From positions 167,524,001 to 167,588,000 of the forward strand of contig OZ024740.1 of NCBI GenBank assembly GCA_964016885.1: a stretch of DNA of 64,000 nucleotides, given 5' to 3'. The notes beneath the pieces are model-generated. The model was given only the letters and a program-made list of their open reading frames with translations. It did no database searches and was not told the DNA's origin. Both the position numbers and the translations under genes were made by a program. Of this stretch, positions 2,872-42,017 are shown piece by piece (within the stretch, counting starts at the first letter, position 1; each line of letters opens with the position of its first letter). Source of the DNA: Eledone cirrhosa (lineage: Eukaryota).

Positions 2872-5543
2872 TCGTAGCAAAATAACAGATTATGAAAACA
2901 CCAACGACATCATGGTGCACTCGGACAAAAACTGGAAACCTCTACTTCGTCAACCTTGACAGATATCACACACTGATCAGGAGCAGCCTAAACTCCACCT
3001 ATAAAAAGGCTAGCCATTCAATTATCGAGGACATAAATCGAGATGGACAACAAATTACCTCCAGCCTCGTGGTCGTCGACCGCACTGAACCCCTAGAACC
3101 ACGGACTCCCTACTTCACACTGAAGGACCACAAATCCGACTTCAACCTCAAACCACCCATTGGCTCATAAACCCAACGAAGTCGGACATAGGGAGAATCA
3201 GTAAAAAGATCCTAGACCGAGTTATACCAAAAGTTAAGCAAAACGTGAGACTTAGCCTATGGGTCAGCACACAGGAAGTAATCTCATGTTTCAGGAATAT
3301 GGAGGACAAACGAGACACAAAATTCATCCAGTTTGACATAGAGAGTTACTATGCATCTATTACCTTACCGCTCCTTACGGCCGCCTTGGACGTTGCCGAA
3401 ACACTCACACCCATCACTGACCAAGAAAGAAATATCATTCTCCACGCCAGGAAGACAGTCCAACCTTTCGACAACTTCAAGTGGATAAAGAGGGCTCCCG
3501 ACTCCCCCTTCGACGTCAGTATGGGCGCGACGGATTCGGCCGAGGTCACAGATCTTATAGGATTATTCCTACTATTTAAACTCACCGAAATGTTTCTTGC
3601 ATTCGGCGGTGGATTGTACCGGGATGATGGCTCCTAACCTTCAAAGGGTACAACCCCAGTAGTACAGACCGGGTCCGTAAATAACTAATCAACTTCTTCC
3701 GGGACTGGGGATTTAAAATCACCCTACAAACGTCCCTAACTCGAGTCAATTTCCTGGACGTAACCCTTAACCTCGAAAATGATCCGTACTACCCATACAG
3801 GAAACAAAACGACAACCTGCACTACATCCACCGCCGCTCTAACCATCCTAGAAACATCACCAATAACCTGGTTAAAAACATCTCCCTTCGCATATCTCGT
3901 TTGTCAGCTAATGAGCAGATATTCGAGGAACACGCGCCTCATTACAACCAGGCCCTCATGCGAAGTGGCTTCCGGGAGGAAATATCCTGTTATCCAGCTT
4001 CCCTTAGCTGAACCAGGAGGCGACACCGCCGCTCACGCAACGTAACGTGGTTCAATCCTCCCCCATAATGCCGAGGTGGCAACACCTATCGGGAAAATCT
4101 TCTTTAGACTCCTCGAAAAACACTTCCCACAACAACACCGCTACCACAACATAATCAACAAAAACACCATCAAACTCTCCTACAGCACCACACCTAACTT
4201 CGCACAAAACATCGTCTCCTCAAACAACAAAAAACTCAACTCCTATGGAAGAAATAACCTAGACATCAGTGGGGAGCCGGCCAGGAGGTGTAACTGCTCT
4301 GATAGATCTACGTGCCCCCTCAACAACAAATGCCAAGAACGTAACGTGATCTACCAGTGCAACGTGAGGACGGACACCTCCAACAAAGCTTATATAGGAA
4401 TAACAACAAGACCCGGCTCTACCAACACCGATATACTTTCCGAAACTCGATCCGGCGACATGCCACTACACTTTTGGGCCACATCTGGAACCCCCAATAT
4501 AATAATATAACCTACAATCTCACTTGGAGCTTACTTTCCAGAGCTAACTCTTACACGGGAGGACGCCGTCCGTGAAACTTATGTTCGGAGGAAACATTAC
4601 AAATGGTGTTTTCGAAGGACCAACTCCTAAACGAGAAAGACGAACTGGTAACCGCATGCAAACACAGATTGCGTAGGACTTACCTCGCCCTCAAACCCCA
4701 TAACGACCCGGGTGGGTAGACAAGGGCTGATAGCCCCCCCCCCCCACACACACACACACACAGACTTGCCGAATAAGTTAGTGGAAACCCCAGCTTACTT
4801 AGGTAGATGTATCTTTTTTCTTTTCCTCTTTGTCTTATTCTTCCCACCGGTCTCATCCTATTACTTCCTTCCACTCCCTATTTTCTTCCTCGTCTGCTTT
4901 TCCCCTTTCGCCTACCCCTATGCAGCCCATCGGGCCTCTGTAGCGTCAGTTCCCCCACCCCTGTAATTTTAAGATAGAATTGGCCGAATACATTTTACTA
5001 ACTACTTATAGGAGACGTGTTAAACCCCCTTAATTTTGTATCAGTTCTGGTTCTGGTACTACTCAATTTCTACAAGTGTTTTCTATTCTCAATTTATTAA
5101 CCTGTAATTGTAAGATAGCATTGTGAAATGTTTTATTCATTTCTCACTATCTAATTTTAAATATTTTTATTTATTTCTATTATCTTTTATTGTCTCCTAC
5201 TCTCATTCGATTTACCTATTCTATAACCTCCCTCCTCCACTTCATACTCTATCCTTAGAATCTACTGTATACATATCACTTTCAACCCTTGACCGCTCCA
5301 CTCACTCCCCTATTGTTCTACAGGCAAGTTCAGCCACTCCTACCTCCCACCAAATGCCATGATAGACTTATTTGTGTTTACAACAAATTTTAACCAATCC
5401 TCTTGACAACTACAATCTTCCCGGAAGTACCCCACTTGACAAGTTCGGCTATTTATTCACCAGGCTAAAAATTCTAATTTAGTCCAGAAATAGCCGTCGA
5501 AACGGCTTGAGCTCTGCCGTCGGGTTCATACTTTTTCCTATTA
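2872..5543 (+). mobile_element. Penelope-like retroelement (probably Naiad-like), 5'-truncated and frameshifted: RT, GIY-YIG, 3' UTR, hammerhead, ending at (TA)n
   Basis: RT motifs TLKDHK, INPTKSDIGRISK, FDIESYYASI, MGATDSAEVTDLIG and GLYRDDG. Linker CNC-x5-CPLNNKC. Nuclease VIYQC...YIGIT. C-terminus LLNEKDELVTACKH. Clade assignment is from memory of motifs, not a tree. Confidence 0.9.
5424..5533 (+). ncRNA. Type-I hammerhead ribozyme with variant U3-A8 core
   Basis: TTGACAA at 5436-5442, extended stem II CGGCTATTT/AAATAGCCG, GAAA at 5499-5502, stem III ACGGC/GCCGT, GTC triplet at 5519-5521, bulged stem I AAGTA-CCC/GGG-TACTT. Confidence 0.7.
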
Positions 5544-5788
5544 TATATATATATATATATATATATATATATATATATATATATATATATATATATATAT
5601 ATATATATATATATATATACATAAATACATACATAAATGCATACATACATATATATATATATATTTATATATATATTTATATATATATCTATATATATAT
5701 ATATATATATATATATATATATATATATATATATATATATATATATATATATATATATATATATATATACATATATATATATATATAT
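5543..5788. repeat. (TA)n microsatellite
   Basis: Direct reading. Confidence 0.98.
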
Positions 5789-6698
5789 GAACGAAATTAA
5801 CTGTGTACAATTATTCGTATTACATATGGGTTTATGCTTGTAGTCAACAACACCCACACTTAAACGTATTTTAAATCTGCACACACACACACACACTAAC
5901 GCACATATGTGTGTTTGCAGTGCCCACTGCAAGTGTTTGTGTTTCTATGTGAGTATGTGTTTTGGCTGTGTGCGTATGTTCAGGAAACAACACACTGTCT
6001 CTATTTCTCTCTTTATCCCCTTCAATGGTTTTCTTTTCTCTCTGTATATATGTGATCAGTTGTACCTATCTTGATAACTATAAATGTGTGTTACGTGTTT
6101 GTGTCTATCACTGTACAAATTGTTTCCACACGATATCTGCTACTATAAAAATGCACGAACCTCCCATTTTCTTGTCGTTGTCATTCTACGTTGGTGTATA
6201 TGTGTGTATGTTCGGTTTCTCTATACTCGTGCGTGCGGGTTTATATATATGTGCGCATATACATGCGCGCGTGTTTCCATTATATGCAGTTCCTTTCTAA
6301 AAGGCTTCGTCAATTCCATTTAAGGGGTTGCTGTTACCTTGACAACGTGCAGATGATATACGTGTAGTATGCATCAATACAGGTTAATATGAAGATGAAG
6401 GAAAAAAAAAACCTCTGATGAGTTGGCAACGTGTCCTCACTTTGTGAGTATGTGTGCTTCCGTATGTGACTGCGTATGTGTGTTCGTGAGTTTGTATGTG
6501 CATGTGTGTGATATAAGAACATCAAAATATAAGAAATATTAACATGATAGCCATTCATTCTCTGATTATTTCTCCTTTATTCAACTAACAACTATTTTAT
6601 CTATCCATATATGTTACGATCCACATCATCTTTGTATGCCTATTGTTATATGTATTTATCTCGGTATCATATATCTTTATTTTTTCGTCTATCTCTGA

Positions 6699-40715: not shown

Positions 40716-41743
40716 GCAATAATAATAGTAAATAATCATAGTAAAAATATTAGTAGTAACATTGGAAATAACAATAGTAATAAAGTTAGTAAAGTTAGTA
40801 ACTTATAAAGTGTCTGTGTCTCTGTGTAATTTTGTATGTTGTGTGTGTGTGGTTATGTGCATCATATTGATGAATAAGTTGATAAATCGATTGTATGGAA
40901 ACTTATAGCTTATAGATAGTTGGATGAATGTATGCATAAAGTATACAAATCTATTAACAGATGAAGGAGCAAACTGAGAATAGAAAAGAAACGCTTCAAT
41001 ATAAAACCACACAACACGAAACAAGTATAAAACAAACAAACCCCTAACAGTCTAAGTAGGCAGTTCAGTGACAATGCCAAATAGAGTTCTTGCAATAACG
41101 TCCAGTATATATTTTCGTAAAATATTTACTTGTAAAGAAATTACTCAAACAATACCCGAAGGAGTTAAGAAATAGGTAAATAACCGTGCGTCTAAAATCT
41201 TAATATTCACAGGGGGCTTAGAGCTAATGGAGTTTTGGTTGTGCCGTTTATACGACTTTACTAAAGAAATAAGTAGGGTTTCCATTAAGATAATAAAGAT
41301 GCAATTATTTGGTTTGTATTAAAGAGCAATTTCACCTCGTATATGATAACGCAATATTAAAGATATTAGTGCATTATTAGACATGCATGCAGTATATGTG
41401 CAGATGTGCATATATTTATGTGAAATAATGTGTGCATATATATTGTGGCATATATATATTTATATATATATATATATACATATATATGTATATATATATA
41501 TATAGAGCAAACATCACGGACGCTCTATCTCAAAATTATTTTTGAAAAGCATTAGAAATGTGCAACCGGTAAAACTTAAAACCAAAACTGAATACTAACC
41601 AATACTATTACTAAGTTTCACTTATTCCTAATTAAACTATTTTTCACTGTGAACAATTTGTCAGCATTTTCTTTTCCGTTTACCAATATATATATATATA
41701 TATATATATATATATATATATATATATATATATATATATATAT

Positions 41744-42017
41744 AAAAAGAGATGAAATCGAAAATGCAACTGGAGTCTTATTTTTTTTTTAAATATATAT
41801 AATTATTTGGTTCCTTTACCGGTTTCGCAGTTCTCAACTCACCTTTTGAAAAGCAGAAGAACTGCGAAACCGGTAAAGGAACCAAATAAATATATATATT
41901 TAAAAAAAAAATAAGACTCCAGTTGCATTTTCGATTTCATCTCTTTTTCTTTATACTTTCACTCGTGTAGGACACCGCGGTTATTTTTCATTTTGTAAAA
42001 AAAACCTCACTTTCTAA
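41744..42017 (+). mobile_element. Short hammerhead element with a 90-bp foldback, between two (TA)n tracts
   Basis: 41744-41834 is the reverse complement of 41858-41948. Confidence 0.85.
41842..41879 (+). ncRNA. Minimal type-I hammerhead ribozyme with U3-A8 core and all stems intact
   Basis: CCTT TTGAAAA GCAG(AAGAA)CTGC GAAAC CG GTA|AAGG. Stem III is the palindrome ACCGGT. Confidence 0.8.

Follow-up and report, generated by a model that had tools for sequence, protein, structure and literature searches.

The 64,000-nucleotide (nt) stretch of Eledone cirrhosa DNA analysed here (GenBank assembly GCA_964016885.1, contig OZ024740.1, forward-strand positions 167,524,001 to 167,588,000; hereafter the window) is part of a 3.0-Gb, (TA)n-rich genome and contains three motifs which, judged from their sequence and predicted folds, are real type I hammerhead ribozymes located at the 3' termini of Penelope-like elements (PLEs). 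In all three, the core residues at positions 3 and 8 are U and A (U3-A8) in place of C and G (C3-G8), and a further insertion of the first element family carries a mismatched C3·A8 core (in counts, core states are written as U3A8, C3G8 and so on). The ribozymes and the elements that carry them are as follows.

5430-5526, plus strand: site 1, type I hammerhead with U3-A8 core TTGACAA (5436-5442), GAAA (5499-5502) and GUC with C17 at 5521
2873-5542, plus strand: family 1, a 5'-truncated PLE of Hydra-clade type by its motifs, with a broken reverse transcriptase (RT) and C-terminal GIY-YIG open reading frame (ORF) to about 4716, a 3' untranslated region/pseudo-long terminal repeat (pLTR) and a (TA)n end
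7711-7755, minus strand: site 2, type I hammerhead with U3-A8 core TTGATAA (7751-7745), 4-bp stem II and GUC with C17 at 7715
7572-8036, minus strand: family 2, a non-coding repeat with tandem units of 320 nt (about 1.45 units here), a retrozyme-like non-autonomous PLE whose 3' end lies in TA, 143 nt beyond the cleavage site
41842-41879, plus strand: site 3, minimal type I hammerhead with U3-A8 core TTGAAAA (41846-41852), 4-bp stem II and GUA with A17 at 41875
41737-42020, no single strand: family 3, 3' stub of a PLE of Neptune/Nematis type by its motifs, located in (TA)n and accompanied by a partial inverted copy that makes a fold-back
35978-36410, no single strand: second family 1 insertion, of a C3·A8 subfamily, split by inversion

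Three type I hammerheads and their carriers

As the original prediction had described, the three cores take the place of the CUGANGA box between stems I and II and are followed by GAAA, stem III and a GUC or GUA triplet; stem II carries G10.1-C11.1 at every site. The arrangement is that of a type I hammerhead, with three stems around N3 UGA N7 N8 A / GAAA / UH and an open stem I, and U3-A8 provides a Watson-Crick 3-8 pair at every site. At site 1, stem II is long and branched (56 nt) and stem III (5502-5520) contains GAGCTC; stem I is intact in the family form and has decayed through two changes in the window copy, which was not picked up by the structure descriptors. At site 2, stem III (7727-7716) is over its whole length a perfect 12-nt palindrome that includes GAGCTC, so that the palindrome said to be shared by two of the families was indeed found in both; stem I has a long extension to about 7693-7778 (fold z -4.1), and a U-U mismatch in stem II of the window copy is paired in 48 of 58 family copies. 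Site 3 is a 38-nt minimal form with a 6-nt palindromic stem III (41869-41874), and it lies inside a fold-back with arms at 41737-41833 and about 41858-41948; a transcript spanning both arms was predicted to form a single hairpin of -138 kcal/mol in which the ribozyme is buried. An older, decayed relative of this hammerhead (85% over 34 nt) is located 300 nt upstream at 41540-41573 on the plus strand, with the UUGAAAA core retained and GAAA gone. No hammerhead family was present among the 150 of 219 matches listed in an Rfam scan, only microsatellite artefacts, and the repeat finder output for the window was dominated by microsatellites.

The family 1 element in the window is 91% identical over 2.7 kb to a full pLTR-ORF-pLTR copy (L091), with supporting tblastn pieces, and pLTR-ORF-pLTR copies, inverted copies and (TA)n insertion were all seen in this family. 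A relative (L363) has the Hydra-clade motifs RWR, DKT, CNCPDRSIC and AYIG, and the crude CCHH pattern is absent from it. Family 1 thus resembles the Hydra-clade PLEs with a C-terminal endonuclease (EN) described by Craig et al. (2021, PMC8557442) in its size of about 3 kb, RW(R/K), DKT, CxCx5C linker and divergent RT4, as well as in (TA)n insertion, the hammerhead, and the inverted 5' copy and tail; unlike the Hydra hammerheads, called canonical in the available text of that paper, it has U3-A8 and C3·A8 cores. Longer copies of family 3 encode a 760-aa RT and GIY-YIG protein with GLKF, DKG and a CX3CxxC linker, and they include pLTR-ORF-pLTR and inverted copies. One such ORF (L351) was matched by RVT_1 (E 4.9e-07) and GIY-YIG (E 7.7e-05) and combines GxKF, DKG, RT, a CX2-5CxxC linker and, at the C terminus, GIY-YIG. 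The protein tree was limited to elements of this genome, and the Hydra and Neptune/Nematis labels are assigned from motifs.

Family 2 consists of AT-rich units of about 320 nt in arrays of up to about three, each with one type I hammerhead and no ORF, which is the form of a non-LTR retrozyme, defined by tandem units of 150-450 nt that each contain a type I hammerhead and lack an ORF. It shares this AT-rich tandem organisation with animal non-LTR retrozymes (Cervera and de la Pena, 2020, PMC7229834; Li et al., bioRxiv 10.64898/2026.07.22.740005); family 2, identified here in genomic DNA, differs from them in its U3-A8 core, its PLE-type inverted copies and its two fixed 3' ends, at +143 (36/81) and +169 (21/81) from the cut site. 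In a subfamily (L145:1198-1518, L267; 3 of 58 copies), a T-A pair of stem II has been replaced by C-G, a compensatory change. These two loci were also considered as an autonomous partner of family 2 and rejected, the apparent linkage being due to separate insertions, and no autonomous PLE partner was found. A stub of the family 2 repeat (81% identical) is present at 21124-21208 on the plus strand.

The U3-A8 state of PLE hammerheads is already known. About 1,300 hits were reported in Schistosoma (Cervera and de la Pena, 2014, PMC4209133), and both the site 2 core (UUGAUAA) and the site 3 core (UUGAAAA) appear in the supplement of that study; natural U3-A8 covariation, with earlier in vitro activity cited, was described by Perreault et al. 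(2011, PMC3088659), the swap being the same as here and appearing in the available text without a tie to a lineage history. The present motifs share with metazoan PLE hammerheads, including U3-A8 Cercyon of Schistosoma mansoni, the pLTR location, type I topology, G10.1-C11.1, palindromic helix III, close inverted pairs and the U3-A8 core itself (PMC4209133). They differ from these published forms in that no extra nucleotide separates position 9 from 10.1 and in that stem II of site 1 is branched and 56 nt long and its stem III stable, and from the account available in that paper in the presence of amplified C3·A8 subfamilies.

Core states at positions 3 and 8

Family-specific patterns in which positions 3 and 8 were left free were matched exactly to the whole genome, and core states were read from the first 100 matches listed. 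For family 1, 668 matches were obtained (98 U3A8, 1 U3C8 and 1 U3U8 among those read), for family 2 436 and for family 3 6,469, with U3A8 in 100/100 in both latter cases; U3-A8 is therefore an inherited state and not decay, as had been proposed. The reversed patterns used as controls gave 0 matches for every family-specific genome pattern. A DNA search for family 3 returned no matches where the pattern search succeeded, and a generic minimal-hammerhead pattern was unusable as a census, nearly all of its listed matches (at least 100) being mutated family 3 copies.

The census instead applied a structure descriptor to 110 randomly placed stretches of 10 kb (1.1 Mb). At a score of at least 10, 36 hits were recorded (17 U3A8, 12 C3G8, 1 C3A8 and 6 others), compared with about 7 hits in shuffled sequence (0.5 U3A8, 0.25 C3G8); at a score of at least 12 there were 19 (10 U3A8, 8 C3G8, 1 C3A8 and no others), compared with about 0.1 U3A8 and 0.1 C3G8 per shuffled set and none on reversed sequence. 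Since the hits far exceed these controls and the reversed patterns found nothing, the hammerheads are not due to chance. When census hits, further hits and family 1 were sorted into families by eye, about seven were U3A8 and seven C3G8, and across families the cores of this genome are almost exclusively of these two kinds. With 17 U3A8 against 12 C3G8 hits in 1.1 Mb, a CUGANGA search misses more than half of them here, as the original prediction had warned of such searches.

The single C3A8 census hit (L262) was considered as a second C3·A8 family and rejected, because this copy has decayed from the state of its family, which is C3G8 (98/100 C3G8, 2/100 C3A8). That family (L331-L350; L262:9612, minus strand) forms tandems of roughly 486 nt, has 828 matches with at most one mismatch, and shares its stem I and GUA site with family 3; in 2/100 copies its C7-G8 CpG has decayed to C3A8, which is a mutational route into the mismatch.

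U3A8 was found in two deeply diverged PLE clades, Hydra and Neptune/Nematis-type, and one Hydra-type element (L108) with flanking C3G8 hammerheads groups with the U3A8-bearing L244 and not with family 1, from which at least two switches between C3G8 and U3A8 are inferred. The sequences do not show three parallel double changes, since the copies within one family stand for one event and for family 2 the partner PLE was not found.

Mismatched C3·A8 subfamilies of family 1

Within family 1 a different picture emerged. The C3A8 core has 1,499 exact matches genome-wide, one of them in the window (C1:167559978-167559999), in the insertion at 35978-36410. There the ribozyme is divided: its 5' half, which includes the mismatched core, lies on the minus strand (position 3 at 35995), and its 3' half at about 36243-36332 of the plus strand. 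For the sister subfamilies of site 1 that have G at N7 there are 2,206 matches, and the first 100 listed comprise 49 C3A8 and 51 U3A8 by manual count. Mismatched intermediates as frequent as U3A8, an outcome that the original prediction had named as refuting it, are thus present within the site 1 lineage, although the family consensus states are U3A8 and not C3G8. Position 3 in these subfamilies is C or U only. C3 and U3 copies have identical flanks, which shows that C3 arose by substitution and not through a slip of register, and the same C/T split was found in contigs of an independent run (X1), with T in about 52% of the depth. The C3A8 copies carry RT and EN coding sequence.

These subfamilies, in which the 3-8 Watson-Crick pair is lacking, bear directly on the proposal of selected covariation. 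In its strict form, only paired cores would work, mismatches would be dead ends, and each of three lineages would have made the double change. The near-exclusive occurrence of C3G8 and U3A8 in the census, the decayed nature of its one C3A8 hit, and the presence of U3A8 in both clades beside a C3G8 Hydra-type element agree with this. However, the strict form is contradicted for family 1 by the amplified, RT/EN-coding C3A8 subfamilies, unless these spread as passengers alongside a master whose core was paired; G8 copies in an older sister lineage, moreover, carry both C3 and U3. We consider it improbable. From the near-equal frequency of C3A8 and U3A8 among the matches listed for the site 1 lineage, the sequences indicate that 3-8 pairing is preferred and not strictly required for spread of the element.

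That older sister lineage, known from listed matches (G000) and without flanks, was counted by hand: among 100 listed matches, 85 bear a core, of which 65 are U3A8 (mostly UUGAUAA) and 13 have G8 with either C3 or U3. The G8 minority may record a route from C3G8 through U3·G8 to U3A8. In the family 1 pattern, G8 has 22 matches (7 C3G8, 14 U3G8 and 1 A3G8, manual count). The counts speak against rescue of C3·A8 in the cell by A-to-I editing of A8, which would yield C3-I8 and is chemically plausible by reasoning: 7 C3G8 copies face the 1,499 C3A8 copies, U3G8 copies are no rarer, and editing would also strike the essential A6, A9 and A13-15. We regard this explanation as very improbable. No A-to-G of at least 3% was seen at position 8 in contigs of four runs, whose kind is unrecorded and which are silent on editing.

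For the history of the pair, a pLTR tree was built with position 3 masked; 74 of 83 rows were kept and 24 near-identical rows of the largest group thinned, leaving 50. The tree is a ladder, with the window's U3A8 subfamily followed by three C3A8 subfamilies and then by younger U3A8 subfamilies, and it needs two changes at position 3, both forced by starred branches; an earlier tree of 55 of the 83 rows, without two subfamilies, needed three. The same ladder was recovered from EN-coding DNA except for one row (L082), and in the protein tree the younger C3A8 and young U3A8 groups form one clade (99/96). Median divergence from the subfamily majority is 0.056 for the oldest C3A8 group (n=8), 0.028 for the window's subfamily (n=25), 0.028 for the younger C3A8 group (n=19) and 0.014 for the young U3A8 group (n=19), while inverted sister copies differ by 0.054 in the window's subfamily (9 pairs), 0.034 in the younger C3A8 (6) and 0.022 in the young U3A8 (5). 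By these measures the youngest family 1 subfamilies are U3A8, and the simplest history, likely on the sequences at hand, is one of U3-A8 to C3·A8 to U3-A8 with at least one restoration, during which the element kept multiplying. The literature searches retrieved no published natural C3·A8 hammerhead, although subscription papers and supplements may hold one; amplified C3·A8 subfamilies in which the pair was broken and then likely restored appear to be new.

Conservation was assessed on the 36-nt 3' half of the ribozyme, which lies outside all selection patterns. Among five subfamily majorities, 1 of 36 columns varies there and 86 of 206 in the flanks (P 8e-07); between the two large C3A8 subfamilies the figures are 1/36 and 37/206 (P 0.02), and for all three C3A8 groups P is 0.054. 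U4, G5, A6, A9, GAAA, the GUC site and stems I-III are kept along the whole ladder, the 5' positions having been part of the search patterns and hence not independent.

The 3' half of the family 1 ribozyme has 41 matches in 1.16 Mb sampled, mostly in short 5'-truncated or inverted stubs, which extrapolates to about 100,000 per genome. A core-less parasite family, suggested by higher run depth over this half, was rejected, as the depth is explained by such stubs together with the older sister lineage. One stub of family 1 and other remnants in the window are listed here.

42251-42437, no single strand: short family 1 stub with an inverted tail, containing the 3' half of the ribozyme only
About 49153-49185, minus strand: small remnant, with (TA)n at its end, of family 1's older sister lineage
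19682-20266, minus strand: GIY-YIG piece from a further Hydra-type PLE (Pfam E 0.004)
31477-33501, 53740-56497 and 59995-63785, all minus strand: broken long interspersed nuclear element (LINE)-type retrotransposons

The RT of the first LINE-type piece is backed by Pfam at 32146-33414, and the later endonuclease-RT pieces were judged by eye from the ORF list. Inside one family 1 locus (L096:5312-6193, minus strand), a 294-aa ORF resembles a Tc1-type transposase, as judged by eye from a motif.

Predicted cleavage and the spread of a mismatched core

Taken together, the three motifs are most probably type I hammerheads carried by the terminal repeats of three PLE families, predicted to cut the RNA of the element weakly and mostly as dimers; the published U3-A8 pair is their inherited family state, which the site 1 lineage likely broke to C3·A8 through several amplifying subfamilies and likely restored later. 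The palindromic stem-loop III is predicted to be more stable as an intermolecular duplex than as a hairpin at every site (-26.9 against -6.5 kcal/mol at site 1, -20.1 against -1.8 at site 2 and -8.3 against 0 at site 3). In their short palindromic stem III, sites 2 and 3 resemble dimer-cleaving PLE hammerheads (Lunse et al., as cited in PMC6765202), and the minimal hammerhead tested by Cervera and de la Pena (2014, PMC4209133) was reported to have low activity, as dimers only.

In the mechanism that we propose, a tandem or circular transcript, as expected from established PLE biology, would carry the ribozyme, and palindromic stems III of two copies would pair with each other, so that cutting could free or circularise the unit. 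The element RT would then start at two fixed internal sites just downstream, which are inferred from the two 3' ends seen per family, and would copy back through the ribozyme, while GIY-YIG nicking would target (TA)n; the inverted copies and two fixed 3' ends of family 2 correspond to the 'tail' signature that Frangieh et al. (PMC11167929) attribute to two RT start sites. Selection would keep the 3-8 pair over the long run, if weakly, and a master element with a one-step mismatch could stay active for well over a thousand insertions. If a mismatch-bearing master can amplify, the swap from C3G8 to U3A8 can go stepwise and need not be a double jump.

Several observations weigh against this reading. 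The conservation of the 3' half may reflect recognition of the element end by the RT and not catalysis, since this half sits at the 3' end of the element. The EN and protein trees need three changes as drawn, one of them from L082, whose ORF was judged to be mis-linked to its ribozyme. The protein tree places the oldest C3A8 group in a polytomy with the window's subfamily, for which distant Hydra proteins gave no root, so that U-to-C-to-U and two separate restorations both fit. The ages come from small, pattern-selected samples of 3-25 copies per group, the subfamily trees take no account of recombination between subfamilies, and the Hydra assignment is motif-based, no Pfam match being obtained for the two Hydra-type proteins scanned. 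The 5' ends of family 2 are not enriched at the cleavage site, with 3 of 81 within 5 nt against 2.8 expected (48 of 60 loci, after removal of 12 duplicates); the window copy starts 2 nt before the site, yet with no overall enrichment the idea that cleavage sets the element 5' ends was rejected. Finally, single mutants at position 3 or 8 abolished the activity of the Anolis PLE ribozyme (PMC11167929), and in a type III hammerhead the U-A double mutant was implied to be low and only the G-C swap rescued (PMC9901934).

From such inactive mutants it follows that the C3·A8 stretch represents either a dead ribozyme on a well-spreading element or a mismatch tolerated in a large ribozyme. The former would mean that the motif persisted chiefly as a structural cue to the RT, or as a passenger, that cleavage was dispensable and that the later U3 was near neutral; it is a serious contender to which we give somewhat less than an even chance. 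Ribozyme mutants of the Anolis PLE were reported to insert normally in vitro, and no RNA ends were found at the cut site in Anolis (Frangieh et al., PMC11167929), and Naiads spread without canonical hammerheads (PMC8557442, where the function of PLE hammerheads is called unclear); together with the inactive single mutants and the family 2 ends, this weighs against a strong need for cutting. Against it stand the persistence of the core residues and stems through the ladder, the restriction of position 3 to C or U, and the paired state of the youngest subfamilies. The latter possibility, a weakly active core tolerated through a C·A+ wobble, the long stem II and an 18-bp dimer helix, with slower cutting suited to an element that often needs to stay uncut, seems to us rather unlikely. 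The conservation between C3A8 subfamilies (P 0.02-0.05) and the better stem III palindrome of the younger one (-30.7 against -26.9 kcal/mol, predicted) argue for it, while the published single mutants have low or no activity and the minimum-energy fold predicted for an isolated C3A8 copy (L306) is a misfolded one.

The boldest account would see in one Hydra lineage a natural knock-out and rescue, from G8 to U3-A8, then to C3·A8 in three successive subfamilies with more than 1,500 insertions under selection on the rest of the ribozyme, and back to U3-A8. C3·A8 would then be a new, working natural core and a deliberately slow cutter, and the series would show a stepwise path of covariation; we hold this to be doubtful. 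In any of these cases, the C3·A8 subfamilies bear on whether PLE retrotransposition needs self-cleavage. Their near-identical ribozymes, which differ at one core base and each come from a subfamily that has multiplied, would form a directly testable natural series, and either outcome would be informative, whether the spreading element proved to carry a dead ribozyme or the mismatched core proved active.

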